Assembly: GCA_963815195.1 (NCBI GenBank)
Contig: CAWFGE010000008.1
Location: 224,001-288,000 of the forward strand
Origin: an uncultured Planctomycetaceae bacterium
Lineage (GTDB): Bacteria > Planctomycetota > Planctomycetia > Planctomycetales > Planctomycetaceae
Direction: 5' to 3'
Length of the DNA stretch: 64,000 nucleotides
The position numbers and the translations under genes were made by a program. This document shows positions 48,711-63,806 of this stretch, piece by piece (the first letter of the stretch is position 1; each line of letters begins with the position of its first letter). The notes beneath the pieces are model-generated. The model made no database searches. It was not told the origin of the DNA and saw only the letters and a list, made by a program, of their open reading frames with translations.

Positions 48711-48783
48711 GGCGCCGTAGCCAAGTGGCCTAAGGCAGCGGATTGCAAATCCGCCATCGCCGGTTCAAATCCGGCCGGCGCCT
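48711..48783 (+). tRNA. tRNA-Cys (GCA)
   Basis: GGCGCCG/CGGCGCC acceptor stem, GCGGA-TTGCAAA-TCCGC anticodon arm, GGTTCAAATCC T-loop, U discriminator. Confidence 0.95.
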
Positions 48784-48786
48784 CTT
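48738..48786 (+). repeat. attL core (3' part of tRNA-Cys)
   Basis: GCGGATTGCAAATCCGCCATCGCCGGTTCAAATCCGGCCGGCGCCTCTT. Confidence 0.92.
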
Positions 48787-50307
48787 CGGACATCAGCGGA
48801 CATTCGCGGCTCATCATCGCCCAAACCCTTAATTTTCAAAGGGTTTGGGCGATTCGCTTTTTTTGGCGTCGGATCGGGGTTTTCCCCACTTCCGGACATC
48901 TGCGGACATACGCTGCCGGGGGCTGGTCCAAGTTTTGGTCCAAGTTTTTGCGGAGCCTGCCCGTCCGTCCCGGTCGCCTGGAGGGATTCCGGGCGGTCCG
49001 ATCCGCCCGGTTTCGGAACGACGGGAACGCCCACCAGAGCCGCCGCCACGTCCCGGGCCTGCAAATGACTGTATCGGTCCATCGTGAGCTTGAATCGTCG
49101 AATGGCGGGCCAATTCCTTGGCCGTGTTGGGGTGAACCTCGGCCGTCGCGAGGGACGAAATGAAAGTGTGACGCAGGGCGTGGAAATCGAAGACGCAGCC
49201 GCGGGCGTCTTCGTACTTGAACAGGTCGGATCGTTCCCGTTGCTCCCGGACGAACGATTTCGCATCGTCGATCCAATTCGTTCGCGCGGCTTCCAGGTCG
49301 ATGCGAAGCATCTTCGCGGCGGTTCGCCACCACGAGCCGGGCCACAAGAGGGCGTCCGGGTCATCCTCCCGCCGTTTCGCAATCCAATCGGACAACCAGG
49401 CCGCGGCCTCAGGCGAAAGCGGTTGGACATCGAGCCGGCGGCGTTTCGAGTAGGCTGCAGCGACGGTGATGGTCGGGGGATTCGCGGCGAGGTTGAACGA
49501 CCTGGGCGTGAGGGACGCGAGTTCCTGCGCCCGCAGCCCCGAATAAGCGGCCGTGAAATAGAGCATCATGCGATCTTCGCCGGCGAGCCGCCGATAAACT
49601 TCCTCGGATTCCTTCGCGGCCTTGATGAGCCATTCCAATTCTTCGGGCGTCGCGGCCCGGCGTTCCCGCTTCACGTCCACGTCTTCATTCACCGGCGAGA
49701 GATGATGCGAAAAGATTCTCCGGCCAACGGCGTTCCTTGATGAGCCAGGTTCCGAAGTTCTTGATGACCTGCAAATAATCGTTGCTGGTCGCCGCGCCGA
49801 TCCGGCCGGAATCCGCGTTCATTTTTCAGCCAGTCCGCCACGCGATGCGCCTGCAGGTGTTGCAGCTTGATGAAATCGGCATCCGTCGAAAAGCCGTTGA
49901 AGGCGGTTGGCTTGCTGTTGAACATGGTCGGGGGAATTGTCTTTCGATTCGAGATGCCGGCGGAAATCCTCCACGTGTTCCGAAAGCATCCGCTCGCGAT
50001 GCTCTTCATAGGGATCCGAGTAGCCATTCTTTTCGCGGTTCGCTTTGCGGACGATCTCGCGGAGCATCTCGGCCGCTTCGTCCTTGTCCGCCGAAAGCGG
50101 CTCGCGTTGAATGACGCCATCGGCATCCCGATACTTGCCGTACCATTTTCGGGTCTTGCGTAGGCAGCGTTCGCCATCATCGGTGAGCGGGGCCGTGATC
50201 ACCCGGCCGCGGGTTCGGAAGCGGGCGAACTTCCGCCCGTCCTTCTCGACGATCTCGGCTTGTTTCGGGATGGGGGCGGGGTAGGTGTGCTGATACAGAT
50301 GGGCCAT
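48765..50307 (-). CDS. Tyrosine recombinase/integrase (split over several frames)
   Basis: SGLRAQEL, FHALRHTF, LARHST and TMDRYSH catalytic motifs spread across ORFs 48829-49692 and 48765-49430; N-terminus in ORF 49819-50385. Confidence 0.88.
48924..48948 (+). repeat. Putative integrase arm-type site (left)
   Basis: TGGTCCAAGTTTTGGTCCAAGTTTT, identical to 63701-63725. Confidence 0.7.
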
Positions 50308-50405
50308 TGGATTCGATCCTTTCTGATACGCGCCGGCCACGCGGGGCGGCGGGGTATCAGTCCCGCTCGCCCCGGCAGCCGGCAAAGGTCAATAACACCA
50401 TAACA

Positions 50406-50711
50406 TCACCGATGGCCGATTTCATCTCGGATTCGCTGCTCTTCCATCGCCTGCCATTCGCTGCGGGTTGGGAGCGTTCCGTCTGGCTTTTGGGATGCCA
50501 GCCAGCGGACAATCACATCCCGAAGCCAACGCTTCGAGCGCGTGCCGATCGTCAGGGCCTTGGGGATCTTGCCTTCCGAATCCAACCGGCGGACTTGGCG
50601 TTCATCCACCCGCAATTCGCGGGCGAGTTCTTCGGCCGTCATGGTCAAAGGCGGCGGAAGTTCATCCGCAGATTGCGGCGGGGGGAACGGGATGGTTTCG
50701 GGTTTGCTCAT
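50406..50711 (-). CDS. AlpA/excisionase-like HTH protein
   Basis: MTAEELARELRVDERQVRRL..EGKIPKAL.IG..SKRW. Confidence 0.85.
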   Translation of the reverse strand: MSKPETIPFPPPQSADELPPPLTMTAEELARELRVDERQVRRLDSEGKIPKALTIGTRSKRWLRDVIVRWLASQKPDGTLPTRSEWQAMEEQRIRDEIGHR

Positions 50712-51213
50712 GTCAATTCGCTTGATCTATAGCGTTTGCGATTGTGAAAAATGATGAACCGTCAGTCGCCATTGCTGTTCCGATCCGCGGCCGGGCTGAT
50801 GGAGAAGCCCAACCGCCTGAAGAGTTTGCCGGCCTGGGCCGTGTTTGTAATTTCTTCCATTCGGCTTTTTGGTAACTAGGATTTACCGTTCACGGCAGAG
50901 TTTCACGGCCTCTTTTGAGGCATGTTTCCATTCCCCGCCCCGCTTCTTTTTCAGCCGGTTCAAGGCTTTCTCCGCATCCTCACCCGGTAGCGGCTTCGGC
51001 GGCGGTGCAGTTCGCGGGGCGAAATCGGCCCAGCCGAACCGAGACAGGTCAAAAGGTACTTCCCCCCGATCGCTCTTATTTTTCGTGAACGAGAAGTACC
51101 GCAGGTATAAAACACACTTTGTTTCTTCGCCGATACGGGCCATGTTTTGGTGTCCTGACGCCATTGACACTGACACTTTTGGTTTTCCCGCGGGATTGAA
51201 CGAATAACGTCAT

Positions 51214-53147
51214 TCAGCCCGCTCGCCAGTCCTCGAAATCCAACAGCCGAAACTCCCGCCGGGGGCGTCGGCGGGTTTTCACCAACCGCCATTCCCCGCC
51301 CCGCTTCCTTTTCAGCCGGTTCAAGGCTTTCTCGGCTTCTTCGCAGGTGCGGTAGCGGCTTCGGCGGCGATGCAGTTCGCGGGGCGTGATGGATCCCCCG
51401 TTGGCTTTGATGACCAATTCCAGATCCCGAAATTCCATCAGTTCTTCATCAGCCCCGCCGGGAACCTGGAAGGCGGAATAGATACGTTTCGTTTCCCGGC
51501 CGAACCATTCCGCCAAACGGATCCCAGCCCGCAAACTCTCCAGCCCCACGGCTTCGCTCTCGGCGTTCAACGTCACGAGTTCCACCAAATGCAACAGAAG
51601 AGCCAGCCGCGCCGCATAGCTTTCCAGTTTCGACCAGGCCGAAGCCAAAGCCCCGAAAGGTCGGCTTGTTCCTCCCCGTGCCGATCCATGAATGCAATCC
51701 ATTCGGTCCGGGCGTCGGGAGTCAGCCCCACCAGCTTGGGGCGGGGCATTCCCATATCATCCCGTTCGGGTTCCAAATCCAAGAGTCCCTGATAAACGTC
51801 GGCCAATTGAGCTTGAGCGGTTTCCCCCACTTCGGCATCAATCCAGCGGCGGGGCGTGCGGGGCGGCATGGCCATCAGAAACCGGGCGGCCAATCCGTTC
51901 TGAAAATGCTCCCGTCCCAAAACGGATTTCAGGATCTCCGGCTGAATGCCCCCGGTGATCGAAACCGCGGCTCGGCTGATGTGAGTCACGGGAACGGAAG
52001 TCTTTCGATCCACGGTGATGGAATCCGTATCAAACAGCGAAAGCCATTTCGCCACATCCCCGCCGTTCCCCGAACGGTACTGATTGAAACTCTGAAACCA
52101 GCCGCTCAATTCATCGCGCTGCACCAACAGCCCTTTCGGGTTTTCCATCAACCGCACGGGCAGGGCTTCGGTTGTGGTGTCATCGATCAACAGGCGGCGG
52201 GCGGTGGGCGGGGCCGGCGAATCGGGCGGCGGTTCCCCGCGGCGGCGGCCGGCCCGCTTCCATTCCGCCAGGTCCGCATCGAATTGGGTTTTGTCTTGGG
52301 CGTGGCGCTCGAGGTCTTCATCGAATTGGGCGAACCATCGGCTTTGAATCGCCCGCAGCGGCCGCAAGGCCATCTTCATGGCGGGGGATTTGCCCGTTCC
52401 CGATTCGCCGATGGTGCAGGTCCAAATCACGGGCGGGACGATCCATTCCTCTTTAATCCGAAGCGCCGGGAGATGCCCACGCATCCGCCCAAGGCGGAAA
52501 GGATCGGCAGAGCGATGAACGCGGGATCGCAGCCGGCGGACAGGGCGGCGCGGGACGTAAACTCTCCGAGCGGTTTCGGCAGACAATCCACGGGGAACGG
52601 CTCGAACGTTCCCAGTTCGCCCAGTTTTTCGGAAGGCGGGCAGGAATCAAACAGGGCGGCGGGATCATCTTCTCCCAACCAACGCGCTTGGATTTCTTCC
52701 CAGGATTCGGCGGGGTTCATCAATGCGGCTTGCACGGTCTTCGCTCGCGCGAGCAGCCGACGGCGTTTCGCACATTCGGCCACGATGCCCGCGTAATTCC
52801 GCACGTTGGCGGTGCTTTGCGGGGCTTCCATGATTTCCGCAAGAAACAGCGCCCAGCCATCGGCGGGCGCATTCTTGGGGGGCAAGCGTTGCGCCAGAAT
52901 CACCGAATCCACGGGCAGCCCGTCGCGGTCGAGTTCCAGGGCCAAAGCGAAAATCGTTTGATGCTGGTGCGTTGTAAAAATCGCCTGGCGCAATGATTTC
53001 GCCGGCGGCTTCGATCGCTTCGGGACTGTTGAGAATGACCGAACCCAACACGGCCCGCTCCGCATCGGGATTGTTCGGGGGCAATTCAATCGACCGTTGC
53101 CGGCCGTTGTCGGGTTGATTGAAGAGACGATTTATCATCGGACTCAC
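51214..53147 (-). CDS. Replication protein: DnaB N-terminal-like domain + DUF3987/YfjI P-loop domain (frameshifted)
   Basis: LPPNNPDAERAVLGSVIL; FPVDCLP; GESGTGKS Walker A; DTTTEAL; RDELSGW; GGIQP. Confidence 0.78.
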
Positions 53148-53354
53148 TTCGTTGAAGTCTGGTGAGTCCCGGCAATCGTCGCGGAATCCGCGTTCCCAAA
53201 ATCGGTTCTGGTCCGTAAGATGGTGTTGCGAGATTCCGGCAAACCGCCGGGGTTCCCACGGCCGGCCCGGTCATCACGGGTTGGCCGTTCCCTTTGCGCC
53301 CATGCAAAAAGCCCACGGGGGATCCGTGGGCTTCAGTGCGCACGGCGGTTTGGT

Positions 53355-53552
53355 TTACTTGGGCTTCGCGTTCGGTGAAAAATTCCACTGGCGTTCTTCA
53401 ACGTCGTCAGCGGTCCAATCCCAAGACTTCGATGAATTGAGTCTTGGGGCCGGGAATTTGCCCGTTTTGAGAGAGTGGCGCAATTGCCAATAGCTGAAAG
53501 AGTCGGAAATCCGCGGGATTGGATTTCCGAAAAGTGCTTCTTGAGTTGTCAT
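53355..53552 (-). CDS. Small putative DNA-binding protein (AlpA-like)
   Basis: GGAGG RBS; SYWQLRHSLKTGKFPAP..W.WT.DDV. Confidence 0.5.
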   Translation of the reverse strand: MTTQEALFGNPIPRISDSFSYWQLRHSLKTGKFPAPRLNSSKSWDWTADDVEERQWNFSPNAKPK

Positions 53553-54142
53553 TAATAACCTCCACAAACATGTAGTTTTAGCTGGAGGGTCGATTCCGAT
53601 CGCTGGGCACCATTTGACAGGTTATAGCGGGCCATGACCGCTCGCGAAATCTTCATCAAACATCCTCCAAGAGGAAAATTCGGTCCGGTTGACGCTGGCA
53701 TTTAGACAGGCACCCTCCAGATTCCCCCAGATGTGGGGCAATGCCGGCCAAGGTCGCTGCAACAGTTCTAGCAAGTTGTGGGGGAATGTCAATCCGCAAA
53801 CACAAGATGTGCGGCCCACATTGTCCCGCGTTCGCAAAACTTTCGGCGATTTCTGAGGAGCCCAATGACAATATTCGTTTTCCCGCTTTGTTTCACGTAA
53901 AACTGTCAGTGTCAACGGCGTCATCGGCTGGGAAAGCCGGTCAAAAAAACTTGGCGATATTTTTTGCCGGTGCGGGTCCTTCCGAGACCCTGCCCCCGTC
54001 CCGCGGGTATCCAATCGCTGGTTTTTCGCCGATAAATCGGATCTTTATGGGGGTTCTTCTTCTTACTCTTTGGTGGAGCGAATCGGCGAACTCGCGGACA
54101 GAAGTGGCGGGATGCCAAAGGACCTGGCTACAACGAAGCGGG

Positions 54143-55148
54143 CTAATCAGCGGATTCGTCGGGATGTGGGAGATCTGGTTTGGTTTTGGGCGGTTCGAGT
54201 TCTTCGGCCGTCGGTTGATCGGGTTCGGGGGCCTGGTCCTCATCCTCTCCCATAACGGTGTACCCACTTTCCGTTTCCGCCCGCATTAACTTATCTCTCC
54301 GCTTCGCGATCGTTTCGTTGATCTTTCCGTACTTATCGTCGGTGTCGCCCCCGATGAATGGGCGAAACAATGGGGGCGTATGCTCGTCGATGAACCGTCT
54401 TAGAAATTTCCTGAAATCGTCCTGCGATCCTGCACGGTCGCGATGCAATGTTGCCACGGTATCTTCCAATTTATCTAGGCAGTTATCCTCAGCCGCATCT
54501 ATCCAAACAAGGGGATAGGGGTTTCCGTTCAAGACGCCTTTGAGTTCTTTTCGCCCATCGCACCGAAATTCGCAGAAGTCCTTTTCCAATTCGAGTTTCT
54601 CGATGGCGTCCAGCAGCATCAAAGCCAAATCCGCGGTCAGCATGAATTTCCGGGGGGTGGCTTGACTGGCCACGCGAAAGCCCAAGTCGATGGAGGGTCC
54701 GACAAAATCCCGAAGTGATTCGTTATCGGCCGTCGAAAGGGCAAGTTCCGTGTTGGTGACGGGAAAACCAGCCAACCAACCGGAGGCTTTCAGCCGGAGG
54801 GGAACTTCCTTTTTCTGCCATTCCTTCGGATATTTGGTCACGGCGTTTTTGAACGCGGCGATATGGGTGGCCACGTGCCGATGATCCGAAAGCTTCGCTG
54901 TAAAGAGAATTTCATCCCCGGAGAATTTCCAGGGCTTCACTTCCTCGGAGCAGTCGGGCAGTTTTGAGTCCTCGAAGTCCGCGAGTTTTCCATACTCGCC
55001 ATGAAGGAAGCGTGGGAAATCTCCGAAAAATGAACGGAAGGTTTCCGCCCATTGCGTCGGATCTTCCGCGTGAGAGATTTTGTAGGCGGTGGAACCGGCA
55101 AGATCGGCGCTCAGAAACAAACGAAGCTTCCAGCCCCAGCACCATCAT
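54143..55148 (-). CDS. Class III nucleotidyl-cyclase-like protein
   Basis: LSADLAGST, WKFSGDEILF, DFVGPSIDLGFRVAS; likely start is the ATGA overlap at 55148 with a 1-nt indel (ORF track starts at 55120). Confidence 0.6.
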
Positions 55149-55648
55149 CCGGCAACTGCTTTGAGGGATTCATTCCTGACTCGTGCGGCATCCTCTGAGA
55201 CGTAGAACTTCACCGCAAGATCGGCAATTGACTTCCCCTGTTGCATCTCGGCCAGAAACTCGTGGCACGGCATAAGCAACTCAGCCGCAAACCAATTCGC
55301 TTCCCACTCGATTCGATTGGAGCCGGAACGAAAGGCAATTATGGGCTTTTCGCCTTGCCGAGAATGTAGGAAATAATGCCCCAACTCGTGAGCGGTAGTG
55401 AATCGGTCTCTCAAGGGACTGGTGAACGAAGGAAGGACAATATCGAACTCCGTTTCTCCATGCACGTAAATGGAGCCATCTTCGGCGAACCATTCGTCAG
55501 CCGGTTCAAAATGAATGCTGCCCCCAAGGCGCTCGACCATTTCCCCAATGGGTTCGCCCACGCGGAATGTCAACGCCTGCGCCACTTCGCGCATACTCCT
55601 CAACTCGATATTTGGGCAGATTGGAAGGGCGGATGTTTTCGCCCTCAA
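55145..55648 (-). CDS. ImmA/IrrE family metallo-endopeptidase
   Basis: RDRFTTAHELGHYFLH, EWEANWFAAELLMP, LAVKFYVS; start uncertain. Confidence 0.88.
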   Translation of the reverse strand: MRAKTSALPICPNIELRSMREVAQALTFRVGEPIGEMVERLGGSIHFEPADEWFAEDGSIYVHGETEFDIVLPSFTSPLRDRFTTAHELGHYFLHSRQGEKPIIAFRSGSNRIEWEANWFAAELLMPCHEFLAEMQQGKSIADLAVKFYVSEDAARVRNESLKAVAG

Positions 55649-55817
55649 CGTATTCCTTACCTGGTCGGCGAAAGGAGGGCATGGTGCTTGGTTTTCTATC
55701 GGATTTGGAAAGGATTGTTTTCAGCATCATTGCGGGAAGGGAATCAAATTTCCAGTCCTCCGCTAAAATAGAGATACAATTTCCCAAATCGGTTCGCCAT
55801 CGGTGCTTTTCCGATTT

Positions 55818-57133
55818 CTACTTCACCGCGTAAACTTTCAGCACTTCGTCGCCGTAGTGGTTGATGACCTTCACCGCGATTTTGCCCGTGTCGGCTTGGG
55901 GAACGGTTCGCTTTTTGTGCTGTAGAGGCTGGCCCAGGCGTCTTCGTCGATTTCGGCTTTGAGGGCGCGCTTCAGGTTGGCGTAGGGTTCTTCGGCCCCC
56001 GTGAAGTAGGCGTGGCGGACGAAGAAACTCTCGGCATCGTAGTTGGTGTCGATGAACCAACACGCGATGTCATCCGTCGAATCGCTGCGGATTTGGCCCG
56101 TGGTCGGGTCGTAAACGTCGATCCCGTGGATCTCCACCACCATTTCCCCATCTTCGGTTTCGTCCAAGGTGATGTCCGGTTCGCCGAAGATCATAAACAG
56201 GTTGCCGGCCCCGGTCTTTTTGAGCAGTTCATCGCCCATGCTGAGATCGGGATTCATCCGGCAGATTTCCACTTGCAGTTTGCCGTAGGTTTTGGATTCC
56301 TCTTCCACCATCGGATCGAACGCGAACCCGCAGACCAACAGCAAATCGTTCCCGAAGCCCTGCATGGCTTCCTTGGCGGCTTCGCGGACCAAATCCGGCC
56401 CCACGGTCCCGAACTCCGGCCCGATGCACACCGCCACGGTTTTCAGGTTGCCCGATTTGTCGGTGTATTCGCCACGGGCGTGAATCCATTCGCCGGGGAA
56501 GGGTTCCAGCACATCGAACTTGAGGCGTTCGGTCTTGATGCGGTTTTGAACGCCGGCCGAACGCAGGTTTTCGATGATGGCATTGCCGAAATGATCCGGC
56601 CCCACCACCCGCATTTTCACCCCTTCATTGGCCAGCTTCGCCTTTTCCTGCACGTCGATCCGGCGGTGGGGCGAAAGGCTTTCTACGGTAAACGGCCCGG
56701 TCACGCGGAGCGTGTGCTTGTCTTCGTAGGGCTGATCGTAGAGCAATTCTTGATCGGCGTTCCGGGCGATGGATTCATCAATTTCGGCCTGGCGCTTGCG
56801 GCGGAGTTCCCACCACTTTTTGAGATGCTTTTGATCTTCGCTGCTCCAATCGCCCTCGGCTTCGCGGGGGATTTCCCATTCCTCCCAGGACTGGCCGCGC
56901 GAGGCATTCAGGCTTTCGCGGATCGGTTCCAGTTTCTTCTGCCACTTTTCGTGAATCGCATCGATTTCTTCGTTGTTGGCAATGTGCTTGAGCATGACGT
57001 GCGGCACGCGCTTATAGACAAAGCCCTTTTTGATGTCCCCATGCGTGGGATAATCCGGCGGCGTTTTGCCGGTGATCTCGGCTTCCTTCCGCACCCCTTC
57101 GGCAGAATCGGCCATCAGATACCACGGATACCG
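55818..57133 (-). pseudogene. C-terminal half of a type III R-M methyltransferase (Mod), 5'-truncated
   Basis: RYPWYLMADS, GFVYKRVPH, GPFTVESLSPH, GNLFMIFGEPD, WFIDTNY, KIAVKVINHYGDEV; no DPPY or SAM-binding motif present. Confidence 0.75.
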
Positions 57134-57287
57134 CACCACACCACCCGCCTAAGCCGGCGATGGCCCCGATTACCCGGTCCACGTCATCGCCCTATGCCCC
57201 AACTGCCACCACCGCGCCCATCACGCCGACGATGCCGCGTCCTTCAATCAGGAATTGAAGGATGGGTTGAAAGAGTTGGGAAGGTGA
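57131..57287 (+). pseudogene. C-terminal remnant of an HNH endonuclease
   Basis: My translation: PHHTTRL / (1-nt shift) AGDGPDYPVHVIALCPNCHHRAHH...ELGR*. Confidence 0.7.
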
Positions 57288-57322
57288 TGGGAAAATAAGC
57301 CGCGTTCAGACCACTATTGAAA

Positions 57323-58114
57323 TCATGTTGATGTGGAACTCCCACCTTTCTTAAACCTCACTCCAATCGATTCCATCTTTCCCTGGCTGGAATTGTGAGA
57401 AGCATCTAAGGGAAATGAAGCTTCATCAATACTTGTGGGAGTGTAGGCGGTTTCACGAACCGTCTGAGCGGAGCGATTTAGCGAGTGAAGCACATAGCCA
57501 GCAAGAGCAATTCGCCACGGTTCTTCACCTTCAATTCCCGCCTGTACCCGTCGTCGTTCGTCTTGGACGCCGTCTCCGTATGAGTTGGTGAGTGTCGCCA
57601 GATTCACTTCCGGAAACTTTGAGGGATCAAGATTAAGAAGTTGAATGTCGGCGCCCTCTTGATAGCACTCGCAGACGAATCCCACACAACTGAACTTCCG
57701 AAATCGTTTGTTGCCAGTCCGCTTGTCATTAACCCAATCGACGGGTGGATTGACGATGTAGTGCGTCAAAAACCCTTTGGGCTGTGTTGCCATTGGTGGA
57801 GTTTGAGTGTCGATTTCAGCGAGAATCGTTTGGATGCCCGCCACATCGTCGGGTGATAGATCGTCAAGAAACCCTGCAGCATGCACCTTGCACTCATCGA
57901 ACGCATGATTGGAAAAAGCACTTGCTTTCTCTCCTGCAATGATTGGCGGAGTACAATGCCAAACCGCGACAGAATGACCAAAAGCAAGATCAGAACCATC
58001 ACGTAGCAATGCCACATGAAGCACAAATTGATCCTGCTCTGGCCGGGCATACATACCCACTACTGCAAACTTCGGAACAGGTGTTGGGGCAGCCTTCAAG
58101 CGAAGTCCAGGCAT
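57323..58114 (-). CDS. Hypothetical protein, permuted papain-like (NlpC/P60-type) Cys hydrolase candidate
   Basis: N-terminal FVLHVALL...VWH and downstream FSCVGFVCECY (His-before-Cys order). Confidence 0.55.
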   Translation of the reverse strand: MPGLRLKAAPTPVPKFAVVGMYARPEQDQFVLHVALLRDGSDLAFGHSVAVWHCTPPIIAGEKASAFSNHAFDECKVHAAGFLDDLSPDDVAGIQTILAEIDTQTPPMATQPKGFLTHYIVNPPVDWVNDKRTGNKRFRKFSCVGFVCECYQEGADIQLLNLDPSKFPEVNLATLTNSYGDGVQDERRRVQAGIEGEEPWRIALAGYVLHSLNRSAQTVRETAYTPTSIDEASFPLDASHNSSQGKMESIGVRFKKGGSSTST

Positions 58115-58138
58115 TCGCGAAATCCCGTGTCGTGCAGG

Positions 58139-59449
58139 TCAATCTTGGTGTTCGAGTTTTCCTAACTGTTCCTTCACAAGTTTCGCAGCGGGGTGTTTCA
58201 TGACATCCGACTTTTGTGACCACGCTTCGAGCAAATTCATCAATTTGCGTTTAACCTGCCGGGTAAGCCATTTCATTTCGAGTTGTTGAATCTTCTCTAC
58301 ACACTCGTTCAAACGTGAATCTCCCAGCGCGGCCAACGCACACGTTGCGTTTTGGCCAAGGGCGGCTTTTTCACCCGCCACTAACCAATCCCGATCCAAG
58401 AACTTCACGGCCAACTCATGAATCCGATTTGAGAGATTTTCATGCTGTGTTGTATCATCCGGAGGCTGAACTTGGAATCGATGCGTCACGCAAAGCAATG
58501 TTACCAGCCGCGTTTCAATTGGCTTCGGCGGTTCAAGAAATGGCAAAAGCGTCTCGGCTTGCTCGGGGCGAATCATCGAGACATAGGTGCGAATTGCTGA
58601 TTGAACGATCGGCTTCATTTCCGTAGCGGTCGAGTGCAGAAGGGTCGAGGCAAGATCATACAGCCGTTGAGTGAGACGGTTACGAAGTTGCTCATCCGTG
58701 AACTGGACCATCTCTGCCGCCAAGATCATAGTGTTCCGCCAGCGTGCGCTAAGCCCTTCCCGTTCCAATTCATCCACGATGAAGTTGGCTACAGAATCAG
58801 GCTCCTCAAAGTGAAGTTCATTCAGGGCTTCAACACGTCTTTCAATTTCCGCGTGCGCATCTTTCACAATGGCCCAGAAATCTTCACCAGTATATATCTC
58901 TGCTTCGGTTTGGCCTTGTTGAGGATCCAGTGGAGGAGATTCTTGTAAAGACTCTTGACCGCCCCATATTGCAGCCGCTTGGTTTTTGCGTTTAATCCAA
59001 AAATTCGAGAAATTCGCGTATTGATTCCGAGGATCGTCTCTCAGATCGGATTGTGTCAAGAACCTAATATAATACCGAAGCCATGCGGTATAGCCACCAG
59101 GGCTCGACGGAACCCAAAGTGCACCAAACTCGGGCTGTTGGCTGACAAGTTTTGTTTCGGTAATGATCAGCGGGAAATTCTTTTGGGCGGATTCAATAAG
59201 AAGATCTACCAAATCTGCGTGTTCACATTCTGTGGTTGTGTAGAACTCACGATGAAAGGTTCCGGAATTGAAGACATTTTCAACAGCGGTACCTGCCGAA
59301 CTCGGTTGCTTCTCGTCCGATTCGAAGCCTTCTCTGGCTGTGGAGAGAATCCGGCGTGGAATTGGAGGATCAAGTTCATCGCAGTATGGTTTACGTGCAA
59401 CTCTGCGTGTCCGCTTCGCATAATCTACCAGAGTGGCGGTCTTGCTCAT
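58139..59449 (-). CDS. Hypothetical protein with alpha-helical (HEAT/ARM-like) C-terminal region
   Basis: Intact 436-aa ORF with ATGA overlap to the upstream gene; amphipathic helix pattern from ~aa 190. Confidence 0.7.
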   Translation of the reverse strand: MSKTATLVDYAKRTRRVARKPYCDELDPPIPRRILSTAREGFESDEKQPSSAGTAVENVFNSGTFHREFYTTTECEHADLVDLLIESAQKNFPLIITETKLVSQQPEFGALWVPSSPGGYTAWLRYYIRFLTQSDLRDDPRNQYANFSNFWIKRKNQAAAIWGGQESLQESPPLDPQQGQTEAEIYTGEDFWAIVKDAHAEIERRVEALNELHFEEPDSVANFIVDELEREGLSARWRNTMILAAEMVQFTDEQLRNRLTQRLYDLASTLLHSTATEMKPIVQSAIRTYVSMIRPEQAETLLPFLEPPKPIETRLVTLLCVTHRFQVQPPDDTTQHENLSNRIHELAVKFLDRDWLVAGEKAALGQNATCALAALGDSRLNECVEKIQQLEMKWLTRQVKRKLMNLLEAWSQKSDVMKHPAAKLVKEQLGKLEHQD

Positions 59450-60150
59450 TGTTCTGTCAATTCCCCGTAAGTCACTAAATTTGAGCCCTTCTCAATTGCT
59501 TCCCGTTTGACGACGCCAATCTTCTGCCTCGCCCGATTCATTTCGATCTGCAAATCTTCCAAATCGGAACTGTCCAAACTCACGTGCAACGTTCGGTTTT
59601 GCCCATCCCAGTATTCCAGCACCAGCGTGTTTGTTTGAAGTACAGCAAGGGTTCTGGATTGTTCCTCATTAAAGATTGGCCGAAATTCCGTCAGAATCCG
59701 GGCAGACTGAAAAAGAGTGGGGCGTTCGGAAAGAAGATCAAACGCCTTGCTAACCTGTGCGAAGAAGTTGTCCGGCTCAAAAAATGGGGAAAGATGTGGA
59801 ACAATCGCCTTCCAAGAATCCAGATGGTTTTCCCTCCATTTTTGGGGCGACTGATTGGTGAGGGTATGGTCAAGTGCTGTAAGAAATTCTGCAGCAGGCA
59901 ATTCCAGGCGGCGCCTCAATCCATTGAACGAAATCAAGGCATTGAGAATTCCGAGTTGAAGTGTGCGACGATCACATTCGAGGTCGGCGACCAAGCGATC
60001 GTAGACATTCGACAAATTCAATTCGAGTGGCTGCTGACATTGGATTCGTGCGAGTTTGGCCAAATTCTCCTCCCCCAACTCAATGAGGGCTTGAATGCCG
60101 ACAATATCTTCGTTTTGAATCGGGATTGTTTTCGGGGGAGATTCGGACAT
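59446..60150 (-). CDS. Hypothetical protein, COMM-domain-like candidate
   Basis: Helical N-terminus, then ARILTEFRPIF / TNTLVLEYW / TLHVSLDSSDLEDLQIEMNRA (three strands plus helix). Confidence 0.55.
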   Translation of the reverse strand: MSESPPKTIPIQNEDIVGIQALIELGEENLAKLARIQCQQPLELNLSNVYDRLVADLECDRRTLQLGILNALISFNGLRRRLELPAAEFLTALDHTLTNQSPQKWRENHLDSWKAIVPHLSPFFEPDNFFAQVSKAFDLLSERPTLFQSARILTEFRPIFNEEQSRTLAVLQTNTLVLEYWDGQNRTLHVSLDSSDLEDLQIEMNRARQKIGVVKREAIEKGSNLVTYGELTEQ

Positions 60151-60161
60151 GTCTCAATTCC

Positions 60162-60170
60162 ATTATACCA
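60162..60170 (-). promoter_or_regulatory. Extended -10 promoter (TGnTATAAT) for the three-gene cassette
   Basis: Minus strand reads TGGTATAAT, ending 11 nt before the ATG at 60150. Confidence 0.6.
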
Positions 60171-60379
60171 TTGTTAGCCTTGGATTGTGGCAAATTCAAG
60201 CCAGGGCGGAAGTTGCGAAGAATCAACGCTCAATCCGTTCTTCCGGAGAGTGATGATACCGAAATCTACTTTGGACGAACACCCAGGCAGCGGGGAATTG
60301 GGATCTTGCATCCTCCAACTCAAGGGGGGGAGGATGACAAGGATCGTTCCCAATGGGATTGCCGGGAATTCCTGAAATC

Positions 60380-61727
60380 TGTGGGTAAAGGCTTTGAAGC
60401 ACCCCTGCAACACGGCCGGAAGGCGGGGTTCTTCGGTGAGCTGGGCATCCTTCCGGCCCACCTTGGGGAGTTCATCGCGGATTTCCGGCCAGAGATTGCG
60501 GTACTTCGGCATCGTCCCGACCATCGAATCATCGGCCACGGGAACGCGGGGCACTTTGACGATTCCCGATTCGATGGCATCGATCAGAGAGAAATCGGAC
60601 ACCACCCAGGGAAAGAGCGTTCCTTCCTGGTAGCCCGAACCGCTCAGGAAGAACGGCGTGGCCGAGAGATCATAAACCGCCTTGATGCCGAGTTTGTCTT
60701 CGATGGCTTTCAGGCCGGAAATCCACAACTGGGCCTGTTGGTTCCGTTCTTCGGCTTCCTTCTTGTCTTCCCGGCTGAGTTTCGGCCCGTTGGAATCGTC
60801 TTTTTCCTTGCGAAGATAGCAATGGTGGGCCTCATCATTGATGACGATGATATTTCGTTTGTTGCCGAGTTCCCGGCAAACGCGGTTGACCATCTGCTGC
60901 GGAGTTTCGCGGAAACGGTCGGGATCATCGCCGGCAAGAATCTTTTTCGTCAGCCGCGCTGCCTGCACCTGTTCCTTGCGATGGAAGGCGTGGTAATTGG
61001 TGATGATGATTTTGGCCGATTCCAGATGGGGAATCTGCCACGGGGGAAGGATGTCCCGCTGCCGGTAATAGTTTTCGGGATCGTTGGGGAGCAAAACGCG
61101 GAGCCGGTCGCGGATCGTGATTCCCGGCGTGACGATCAGGAAGGCATCGGTAAACCGGGCATCTTGGCGGTTGGAAAGTTTGTTGAGGATTTGCCACGCC
61201 ATCAGCATGGCCATCACCACGGTTTTCCCGCTGCCGGTGGCCATTTTGAACGCCAACCGGAACAGCCCCATGTTGAAGGCTTTGTTTTCTTCGCCGAGCG
61301 TGTTTTCGATCCAATGATCGTTGAACTTGCCGGCCACTTCGGTGATGTAGATGGCGGTTTCGACGGCTTCCCGCTGGCAGAAGAACAGTTTGCGTTCCCG
61401 TTCGGTGTCGCCCCAATAATCGAGCAAGCGCTGCGTGGCCCGTGTCACGCCGGCATAACCGCCTTCCCGCCAAATCCGAATCTTTTCCCGCACCTGGTTG
61501 ATGAAGGGATTATCGGCGAGGGCGTTGCTTTCCGGGTCAAAATCGAACGTGGCCTGTTTGGAATTCGCCTTCGGTTTGGCGATGGGAACAAAATAAGCGC
61601 TGGGCCGGCGGCTTTTGATCACCGTGCTGGTGATCCCATCTTCCTTGAACCGAAAATGCCGATTCGGTTCGACAAACGGGGAATTGAGAATCGGATTCTT
61701 GATAACATCCTGCTTCATGGCGTCCAT
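60380..61727 (-). pseudogene. N-terminal half of a type III restriction helicase (Res), 3'-truncated
   Basis: FFCQREAVETAIY, KMATGSGKT, NDEAHHCY, DLSATPF, DAIESGIVKVPRVP; recognisable similarity ends near 60380, before the second RecA domain and nuclease. Confidence 0.8.
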
Positions 61728-61967
61728 CCTGACAACGGGGCGAGAACCGTATCAGTTTCCATCGGCACGTGAAGCGCCTATCGGTGAAAACCCGGCCATC
61801 AATGCGGATCGGCGGGAAAATGCGAAATATGCGGCCGGTGGGATTGTGCGGATTTGGCTCCAGAAACGAGGTTTTTCAACAATTGACGTTGTGTAGCCTC
61901 CTTCCGCCACCTTTTGAAGTCCAAATCCGGCGGGATTTTGGAAGGCACTGCCTTCCAGGAGGTTTTT

Positions 61968-62186
61968 ATGGTTGCACCAACCTCGCAACCGCACGAGTGG
62001 CGAACGGGGCAGGACTGCCCTCTCGCCGGTGTGTATCGCTTCGACCGCTACACCGATGGCACATCGTCGCCATCGCCAACGCATGAGGAAGCATACATTC
62101 CGATGATCTCACCCGGCCGCACCTTTCCACCGATTAAATCGGCAAATAAGGGGGCCGTTTGGCGCTTTGAGAGACTCATCGAATGA
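61968..62186 (+). CDS. Small YjzC-like protein
   Basis: AGGAGG RBS; RTGQDCPLAGVY...GRTFPP...AVW. Confidence 0.6.
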   Translation: MVAPTSQPHEWRTGQDCPLAGVYRFDRYTDGTSSPSPTHEEAYIPMISPGRTFPPIKSANKGAVWRFERLIE

Positions 62187-62196
62187 CGTTGTGACG

Positions 62197-62234
62197 ACGA
62201 AAAGGGGAGGCCCAATTGGGCCTCCCCTTTTCGT
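62197..62234. terminator. Bidirectional intrinsic terminator
   Basis: Perfect palindrome ACGAAAAGGGGAGGCCCAA-TTGGGCCTCCCCTTTTCGT between convergent genes. Confidence 0.85.
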
Positions 62235-62281
62235 TTTCTTGGCGGGGTTTCCTTGGCGGGCCACGAAAGAAAGTAGCACCA

Positions 62282-62717
62282 TTATGAAACAAACTCTTCT
62301 TCCCTGACATCAACATTCGATTTCAGTTCCACGCCGAAAATCTCCAAAAGCCGATTCGCACGATCGAGCGTGATGTTGTGGTACTCGTTTCGCTCATCGC
62401 GTGAGACTTGGGACTCATGGCAGCCCAACTTTTCGGCCAGTTCTTTTTGGGTGAGTCCACGAAAGATGCGCAGCCCAATGAGCAATTCGCCGATTCCGGC
62501 AAGATTGTGGAGTTCTTTAAACTCGCCCCGTTTCAGTCGTTCGTAGGAACCGATTTCTTCGCGGATTTGCTCCATGAAAGAACGGACGGGTTCGAGGGCG
62601 CGTTCCACTTCTTCGGGCGAGAGAGTTTCGCCAAGCTTCTCACTTCCTTTTCAATCGCTCTGTTTCGGCTTTCAAACGGCGGTTTGCTTCCTGATATTCT
62701 GATTCACTGCGAATCAT
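62282..62717 (-). CDS. XRE-family HTH protein, putative antitoxin (frameshift near 62640)
   Basis: MIRSESEYQEA N-terminus; RIFRGLTQKELAEKLGCHESQVSRDERNEY. Confidence 0.8.
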
Positions 62718-62722
62718 GTGAT

Positions 62723-63280
62723 TTACTCCACAATTTTGACAATGCCCCGCGGCGTATGGTCGCGGGCTTGTCGGAATGCTGAAGGGAAAGTGAGTTCGTG
62801 GCCGTGTTCGTCCCGGAATGCCAGCATGATTGACCATAATGGGGATAAAGTTCCACGCGGTATCGATGCCACATCGGGAGTTGCCGTTTCGAGGAATCCG
62901 GGTGAGGCCTTCGGCTTTTCCGGATCCCAAGTCCAAACTTTATGCGGATCAAGCAAGTTCAATTGGCGTTGAAGTTCACCGCTCGCCAATTCGTGCAGGT
63001 CACATTCAAAATAACCATCAATGTCGTTCGGATGGTCCTTATCTTCCACAAATGACCCATCAATGAAGATCTCAGTGATTCCGACGGTGCGGAGTTGGTC
63101 CACGAGCGTTGCAAGGTTGAAACAGAGCTTTTCCCGCCAGCCCAATCCCAGTTTGGCGAGCTTGGATTTCCTAAAACGAGATGAGACGCGGCCAATTCGG
63201 ATTCTGTGAGTTCGTAGTCGCCCGGAGGGAGAAAGCCATCGGAATTGAAGGGTGGAAGATATTGTTGTTTTCATCGGCAC
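62723..63280 (-). CDS. Pol-beta-type nucleotidyltransferase (DUF6932-like), putative toxin (frameshifted)
   Basis: IFIDGSFVEDKDHPNDIDG; an alternative frame gives FNSDGFLPPGDY; C-terminal PRGIVKI. Confidence 0.7.
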   Translation of the reverse strand: MPMKTTISSTLQFRWLSPSGRLRTHRIRIGRVSSRFRKSKLAKLGLGWREKLCFNLATLVDQLRTVGITEIFIDGSFVEDKDHPNDIDGYFECDLHELASGELQRQLNLLDPHKVWTWDPEKPKASPGFLETATPDVASIPRGTLSPLWSIMLAFRDEHGHELTFPSAFRQARDHTPRGIVKIVE

Positions 63281-63292
63281 TCCTCGGAGGGA

Positions 63293-63321
63293 ATCTTAAC
63301 AGGCTTGACATTTATGTCAAG
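63293..63321 (-). promoter_or_regulatory. Sigma70 promoter with palindromic operator over -35
   Basis: Minus strand TTGACA-N16-TAAGAT (TG-extended); CTTGACAT-nn-ATGTCAAG dyad at 63304-63321; GAGGA RBS downstream. Confidence 0.65.
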
Positions 63322-63700
63322 ATTTTATGCAAGGTGGTTCCAGCACCGCCGGGTTCAAAACCAAAACTTTTGATTCAAAACCCTTCAAAAAATGTGCGCG
63401 GCTGCCGTGCGGTATCCGGGCCAAAAGCCCTCAGCGATTTTGCCACCCCCCCCGGTCGAACCGTGGGCCAGAATGCCGGCCCGCCGTTGAAACAAACTCT
63501 CTCTTTCATGCCGGGTCTTTACCACGCCCCGCCGATCACACCGATGTTGGGGAAGAACCTAGGCGGCGACATCAGGTCGGCTTCGCCGATGCTTCGATCA
63601 TCGCCAGGATCCCCGCTTTGATGGCATCGGGCAGCGTGGGCCATGACTTCGATGACGCGGGAGAGTTCCGGACATTCGCGGCCATGCGATGACGGCAGGT

Positions 63701-63725
63701 TGGTCCAAGTTTTGGTCCAAGTTTT
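63701..63725 (+). repeat. Putative integrase arm-type site (right)
   Basis: Identical to 48924-48948. Confidence 0.7.
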
Positions 63726-63757
63726 CGCCCAGATCCCTTGTTTTTAAGGGTCCGCTC

Positions 63758-63806
63758 GCGGATTGCAAATCCGCCATCGCCGGTTCAAATCCGGCCGGCG
63801 CCTCTT
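63758..63806 (+). repeat. attR core (duplicated 3' part of tRNA-Cys)
   Basis: Identical 49 bp to 48738-48786; lacks the tRNA 5' half. Confidence 0.92.

Follow-up and report, generated by a model that had tools for sequence, protein, structure and literature searches.

A conserved COMMD-headed gene module in a planctomycete island: a probable permuted papain-like enzyme, a helical partner and an exchangeable first gene

RESULTS

A rare and conserved three-gene module

In a stretch of 64,000 nucleotides from an uncultured Planctomycetaceae bacterium (assembly GCA_963815195.1, contig CAWFGE010000008.1, positions 224,001–288,000; hereafter, the window), three adjacent minus-strand genes almost certainly represent a real and conserved module, which is rare and apparently undescribed. 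Gene A (59446..60150, 234 aa) codes for a COMMD-like protein, gene B (58139..59449, 436 aa) for a protein with a helical core and a variable N-terminal extension, and gene C (57323..58114, 263 aa) for a probable circularly permuted NlpC/P60 (papain-like) thiol enzyme. By analogy with toxin-antitoxin-chaperone (TAC) systems, the module may be a mobile, three-part toxin-antitoxin-like unit in which COMMD takes over the role of SecB; this is the favoured reading, for and against which the scales are level. An earlier reading of these letters, made from the sequence alone, had described three co-oriented open reading frames (ORFs) of these sizes, with an ATGA overlap between A and B and a 24-nt gap between B and C, and this layout was found as described. 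It had also taken them for a dedicated three-component system; the linkage is indeed conserved, but only the B-C pair is constant enough to count as the core, the first gene being replaced by another or missing in some loci.

Gene C was located in 26 fetched loci, 24 from Planctomycetota and two from Myxococcota (L028 and L033 are duplicates of loci already in the count). Gene B is directly upstream of it in 22 of them and the full order A-B-C is present in 14, so that the co-occurrence named by the sequence-only reading as its own check was found; the four remaining loci comprise two at contig edges and two fragments. The distribution is very patchy: gene C was detected in 2/40 relatives, in 0/24 genomes of the same family and in 1/400 genomes of the phylum (seven candidates scored per genome), and COMMD genes in 5/400 phylum genomes. 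Viral contigs held one partial locus for gene C, and plasmids gave no match to gene C or to two COMMD queries. The sequence-only reading had recognised no defence system in the three proteins, and none of them belongs to a named family of Pfam, PADLOC or NCBIfam. The best match in PADLOC-DB 2.0.0 (2023 copy) was PDC-M05B on gene B (E = 0.018), NCBIfam 20 gave nothing relevant, and the related triads described below were likewise unmatched. When A, B and C were compared with three to four relatives, identity was 52–78% at codon positions 1 and 2 and only 28–38% at position 3; these saturated third positions and kept first and second ones show, to judge from the alignments, that the cassette genes are under purifying selection.

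Gene A is a prokaryotic COMMD-like protein

The helical HN domain of gene A (residues about 13–141) is followed by a COMM domain (146–221), in which three strands are combined with one long helix. Built from 33 homologues, profile A4 matched PDB 9q6a, a solved bacterial COMMD-like protein, over nearly its full length (E = 9.1e-19). The structure model (predicted local distance difference test, pLDDT, 88.2) matched the same entry by Foldseek, with an E-value of 2.2e-9 and a template-modelling (TM) score of 0.69, human COMMDs coming next, and comparison by VIA gave Z 13.7, a root-mean-square deviation (rmsd) of 3.6 and 211 aligned residues. Sequence homology to a solved member, together with the HN/COMM architecture shared with prokaryotic COMMD-like proteins (PMC13392464; 9q6a), confirmed the earlier guess of a COMM-like fold and places gene A firmly among the COMMD-like proteins of prokaryotes.

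According to the available text of Liu et al. (2026, PMC13392464), this group has 250 bacterial and 111 archaeal members, forms rings of eight or ten subunits, occurs in a type VI secretion system-like context in Myxococcota, and is of unknown function. By analogy with the solved relatives, gene A would be expected to form an 8- or 10-subunit ring. Three-gene modules that include a hydrolase or toxin, such as the one proposed here, do not feature in the part of that paper at hand, and no mention of planctomycetes or peptidases was found in the accessible supplementary text. A literature search whose coverage largely excluded subscription papers found none linking COMMD with defence or toxin-antitoxin systems.

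Gene C is probably a permuted papain-like enzyme

The candidate catalytic set of gene C consists of His33, His53, Tyr119 and Cys143. Cys143 is invariant in 36 homologues, His33 is present in every row covering that site, and His53 and Tyr119 are nearly invariant. The structure model (pLDDT 63.4) had eight VIA matches, six of which are folds that we take to be permuted NlpC/P60, the best being YiiX (Z 6.2, rmsd 4.7, 140 aligned). In the Atlas, the model of a gene C homologue gave a modest match to Peptidase_C92 (TM 0.49/0.53). The order His-polar-Tyr-Cys is the same as in the permuted NlpC/P60 enzyme BcPPNE (His49/Glu64/Tyr127/Cys154), as given in the available part of PMC3142127. Foldseek found no match to the gene C model at E ≤ 0.001 in the PDB or viral libraries, PDB searches with the single sequence and with a profile gave nothing, and none of the 36 members had a Pfam match to the permuted NlpC/P60 families.

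Gene C is well supported as a circularly permuted NlpC/P60 (papain-like) thiol enzyme, as had been guessed from the sequence, while the accompanying likeness to ubiquitin-type parts found no support. It shares the residue order and, with scores that are each modest, the fold match with YiiX/YaeF, Peptidase_C92, PPPDE and TseH (PMC3142127, as far as accessible), but differs from them in having no Pfam match, no signal or membrane segment—no hydrophobic segment was found in A, B or C—and a dedicated helical partner, whose binding is predicted. Permuted NlpC/P60 enzymes prefer lipid-like substrates (same source, in the part available), and from this family habit gene C may act on a lipid-acyl linkage rather than on protein, which is by a small degree the likelier of the two.

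Gene B and its predicted complex with gene C

A profile search among 1.84 billion sequences returned 876 representatives of the gene B family at E ≤ 1e-10. The core (residues about 190–436) is conserved and runs to the C-terminus, and the N-terminus is variable. The alpha-solenoid proposed from the sequence is weakly suggested: look-alikes of a gene B homologue in the Atlas reached 0.92, with low recognition value, and HEAT_2 matches below threshold were seen in three of the 114 homologues scanned (among the top 150). PDB searches with the single sequence and with a profile gave nothing.

In single homologues, the gene B core is fused to a TIR domain and a STAND NTPase (P0138), to a receiver domain (P0148) or to an anti-sigma zinc finger (P0093). 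Additionally, a COMMD sequence is fused in frame ahead of the core in two of 150 homologues, one of which (P0180, with the HN domain) represents an 8-member cluster. Such fusions could be in-frame deletions between neighbouring genes. P0138, found on five contigs, is a 608-aa protein with TIR, a STAND/NACHT-like NTPase and the gene B core in an NLR-like architecture.

The model of the B-C complex scored 0.90, and the best of three controls 0.06. With the mark applied to such scores, 116 of the 157 solved complexes pass, compared with 2 of the 215 mismatched pairs; these counts hold roughly here, where self-made alignments were used. The runs shared at least 77% of contacts, with a partner pLDDT of at least 82, and neither family matches a solved structure by sequence. 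Conservation in gene B is higher at the interface than elsewhere in the core (0.46 against 0.31 for polar positions), and the most conserved polar residues of the protein, Glu246, Arg287 and Ser291, fall within the interface. The gene C side is formed by its long helix and the hairpin before Cys143; it covers residues 89–116 and 128–138, much of which is of low confidence in the monomer model. Judging from these models, gene B very probably binds gene C.

The extension of gene B varies with the first gene

In the 15 loci with COMMD, the gene B extension measures 75–206 aa; in the seven without a first gene, it measures 0, 17, 23, 35, 68, 152 and 209 aa, five of the seven being below 70. The difference has a p-value of 0.024, with kin that are not independent (L011 was left out, and L031 was judged on 500 bp upstream). 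A beta-meander extension was present in 9/11 loci of one COMMD clade, in 0/4 of the window's clade and in 0/8 without COMMD, as scored with a profile that is not independent of these loci. The extension type follows the COMMD clade, whereas the tree of the gene B core does not follow that split. Four COMMD-less genomes, of unstated completeness, have no COMMD match elsewhere in them. At the level of sequence, this pattern fits binding of the gene B extension by gene A. A "DxQS" motif in the beta-meander N-termini was also considered as a gene C cleavage site and set aside as speculation; it is unmatched in the gene B of the window.

COMMD and TIGR04255 occupy the same first slot

All seven COMMD loci without B-C are still three-gene units, in which COMMD heads a tightly linked pair of genes from other families. 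These include a second permuted-papain family (L035, L036, L049), DUF7689 (L038; Cys...His papain-like by eye), an ART-like gene (L037, by eye), a metallo-beta-lactamase-like gene (L032) and a third gene without a family label (L082). In turn, a TIGR04255 gene (59.5 bits against a cut-off of 30) heads the B-C pair of L011. The second papain pair follows TIGR04255 in a Rhizobium plasmid defence island, beside multiubiquitin/ThiF and DUF87/DUF4297 anti-phage-associated genes. The DUF7689 pair likewise recurs behind TIGR04255, with E-values of 1.5e-23 and 5e-33, as does the ART-like pair on weak matches (E = 9e-6 and 0.0035).

TIGR04255-headed and COMMD-headed triads therefore share the first slot, the gene order and four downstream pairs, B-C included, but their first proteins differ: the two profiles have no detectable similarity. 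Because the pairs are shared and the heads dissimilar, two unrelated proteins occupy one slot before at least four pair types, and the three-part unit is not fixed, with B-C as its core. That COMMD genes head other triads, and that these pairs recur behind TIGR04255, is new here.

Of 150 further genomes of the phylum, 18 contained TIGR04255. Most of the 21 loci read continue with two linked genes, L060 and L067 being without such a triad; PIN toxins were recognized in two of the 21, a weak HicA match in one, and Xre-type middle genes in three. The TIGR04255 triads of L057, L059, L061–L064 and L071 share an unnamed third gene with a QGD...TQ(T/S/D/E)CD motif and no Pfam match, which in three cases follows an Xre-type helix-turn-helix (HTH) middle gene. 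No paper using the term TIGR04255 was found, in a search with subscription papers largely outside its coverage. The genome of the window has a TIGR04255-headed triad of its own (L072, G000:C17:127076-130678), whose third gene is ART-like by eye.

Similarity between the two papain families is confined to the region of the Cys helix (probability 72%), and no member of the second was found among viral contigs. Gene B was not similar to its counterpart in the middle position of the triads with the second papain family. Similarly, the middle protein of L082 resembled by eye the beta-meander N-terminus of many gene B proteins, a likeness that was not found when the two were compared.

Composition, promoter candidate and island setting

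The three genes are AT-richer than their host, as had been noted by eye: their guanine-plus-cytosine (GC) content is 0.479, 0.490 and 0.500 for A, B and C, against 0.575–0.604 across the 25 contigs of the genome, and at third codon positions 0.52, 0.48 and 0.44, against 0.70–0.75 for the flanking res and mod genes. The cassette does sit in the middle of a type III restriction-modification (R-M) locus, between the 5' half of res (60174..61727, minus strand; Pfam ResIII), whose homology to a relative stops at 60369 by tblastn, and the 3' half of mod (55871..57139, minus strand; PADLOC MTase_III, E = 1.4e-134, model positions 532–962 of 983). A tblastn search found no second res or mod copy in the assembly. 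Around the cassette, there was no convincing junction repeat, with one 8-bp match at most.

The TGnTATAAT promoter attributed to the cassette is present as the extended -10-like motif TGGTATAAT (60162..60170, minus strand), 11 nt ahead of the gene A ATG, and is rare, with 30 copies in the 8.9-Mb genome. A -35/-10 scan did not report it, and it did not turn up ahead of 19 further COMMD-like genes, so it is a candidate promoter only. The contrast between an intact cassette and broken neighbours held in part: the three ORFs are uninterrupted, and the neighbouring integrase and primase genes are split. However, rpoC of the same assembly (G000, contig C19) is also interrupted, with 492 aa between stops, so the broken neighbours may partly be sequencing indels and the contrast is weak evidence. 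The codon pattern described above is, as far as alignments go, the better evidence of function. Other pseudogene calls in this genome need caution, given this sign of assembly indels.

All of these genes lie in an integrative island of about 15 kb (48738..63806) anchored at a tRNA-Cys gene, with integrase and DUF3987 primase-helicase genes, and bounded by a 49-bp direct repeat at 48738–48786 and 63758–63806. A sibling island (L079, G000:C7, about 91900–105800) is 91% identical over 2.9 kb of core and carries, by eye, type I R-M-like and Fic-like genes. At 54143–55648 (minus strand), the window's island also holds an IrrE/CapP-like metallopeptidase gene (PADLOC capP, E = 3e-24) and, after it, a 325-aa ORF, together possibly a second defence cassette; the ORF had no Pfam, PADLOC or NCBIfam match, and by eye we take it to resemble a nucleotide-cyclase fold. 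At the island end (62282–63280, minus strand), a DUF6932 gene (PADLOC PDC-M63A, E = 1e-10) and an HTH gene are a candidate toxin-antitoxin pair.

Genomic neighbourhood

Among loci L001–L023, clear defence neighbours were seen in seven (CRISPR Cmr, a methylase, DISARM DrmD, Eco57I with OLD/UvrD, UvrD with Eco57I, AAA_21/RloB and an AriA-like ATPase), SNF2 helicases, whose role is unclear, in two, transposases in one and ordinary genes in 13. These counts stand without a random-gene baseline, and the heuristic that selected the genes overlooked some. R-M genes form part of the cargo of both the island in the window and its sibling, and no neighbours were common between module loci. For a defence role, this picture is suggestive only. 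In L003 (10875–18235), an adenosine deaminase-NE0113 fusion and type III-B Cmr genes lie directly downstream of the A-B-C cassette, and in a planctomycete metagenome-assembled genome (L015:11463-13037, minus strand), a metallopeptidase with a weak Pfam ATLF/M90 match lies downstream of the B-C pair.

DISCUSSION

Starting from the established genes, linkage and first-gene exchange and from the well-supported folds of A and C, we propose that the module follows a toxin-antitoxin-like logic. Gene C, a predicted cytoplasmic Cys-His thiol hydrolase, would be the effector, and that it is toxic is a fairly good supposition. The conserved helical core of gene B, predicted to bind gene C, would keep it harmless, and a COMMD ring of gene A would bind the N-terminal extension of gene B and hold gene B stable or inhibitory; that COMMD acts through this extension falls just short of an even bet. 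A foreign protein, most likely phage-derived, would compete for the ring, upon which gene B would be released or degraded and gene C would arrest the cell. Whether the module has an anti-phage role at all is, in our estimate, a toss-up. The rare and patchy spread, the island site, the exchange of the third gene and the lack of shared neighbours fit better with a conflict system than with a metabolic module.

In TAC systems such as CmdTAC and HigBAC, the antitoxin owes its stability to a SecB-like chaperone that a phage protein displaces (available parts of PMC11618068 and 10.1101/2024.02.24.581848). As far as these sources describe them, the module shares with TAC the three-gene operon, an oligomeric third component (the ring being expected here) reused with different toxin-antitoxin(-like) pairs, and a partner bearing a long, poorly conserved extension. 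In contrast, the TAC chaperone gene comes last, after the toxin-antitoxin pair, while the order here is COMMD, partner, enzyme; the TAC extension is a C-terminal ChAD, while that of gene B is N-terminal; and the proposed effector here is a papain-like enzyme. The module is not a TAC member, because it has no SecB, a reversed order and an N-terminal extension.

Several observations weigh against the proposed mechanism. His33 and Cys143 are outside the predicted B-C interface, so inhibition by gene B is not evident from the model, and the gene C side of the interface is no more conserved than the rest of that protein. A single deletion spanning neighbouring DNA could have removed gene A together with the gene B N-terminus. 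TIGR04255 had no structure match and is a candidate chaperone only, and most ART-like labels were made by eye. Defence neighbours were clear in only seven of the 23 loci, with 13 among ordinary genes and no baseline for either count. Finally, in the available text of Liu et al. (PMC13392464), other prokaryotic COMMDs had no predicted partners, and those of Myxococcota had the secretion system-like context noted above.

An inflammasome-like arrangement, in which a COMMD ring or a fused sensor clusters gene B as an adaptor and gene B activates gene C by ordering a loop beside its active site, is unlikely. It would account for the fusions of the gene B core to TIR and STAND, receiver, anti-sigma zinc finger and COMMD HN domains, and for a modelled interface that covers segments 89–116 and 128–138 of gene C, of low confidence over much of their length, and leaves the catalytic residues free; but the fusions are single sequences, B-C occurs without a first gene and with an extension of nearly nil in at least four loci, and first-slot proteins also front PIN-type toxin pairs. 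The middle gene of such PIN-type pairs is normally an antitoxin.

The receiver and anti-sigma fusions hint at regulation, and they agree with a non-defensive stress-signalling or lipid-remodelling module in which gene C would modify lipids or acylated proteins under the control of B and A, as do the 13/23 loci among ordinary metabolic genes and the lipid-like substrates favoured by permuted NlpC/P60 enzymes (PMC3142127, available part). The very patchy spread, the lack of common neighbours, the island site and the third-gene exchange make such a module quite improbable. A selfish addiction cassette—a toxin-antitoxin pair and a stabiliser maintaining itself or the island, with no anti-phage role—is in our view slightly less probable again, although the module inserts at unrelated sites and here replaced the central part of an R-M locus, and such loci are addiction modules in their own right. 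An exchangeable oligomeric third component is easier to explain as a sensor, and a related triad sits in a plasmid defence island.

Prokaryotic COMMD function is given as unknown, and no partners as found, in the accessible parts of PMC13392464, and the locus offers a concrete functional hypothesis. It brings together a conserved operon, a predicted complex of B with C, the gene B extension as a candidate client and a candidate catalytic residue open to mutation, which makes COMMD function directly testable in a laboratory strain. If true, the toxin-antitoxin-like reading would define a non-SecB class of gated toxin-antitoxin systems, a role for TIGR04255 and a new family of papain-like effectors, and would link a eukaryotic trafficking scaffold to bacterial immunity. 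A bolder and rather doubtful extension is that bacterial COMMD rings would be phage-sensing hubs of an undescribed tripartite toxin class, swappable with TIGR04255 and parallel to SecB, and that the COMMD ring of the eukaryotic Commander may descend from a bacterial immune chaperone that bound unstructured partner tails.

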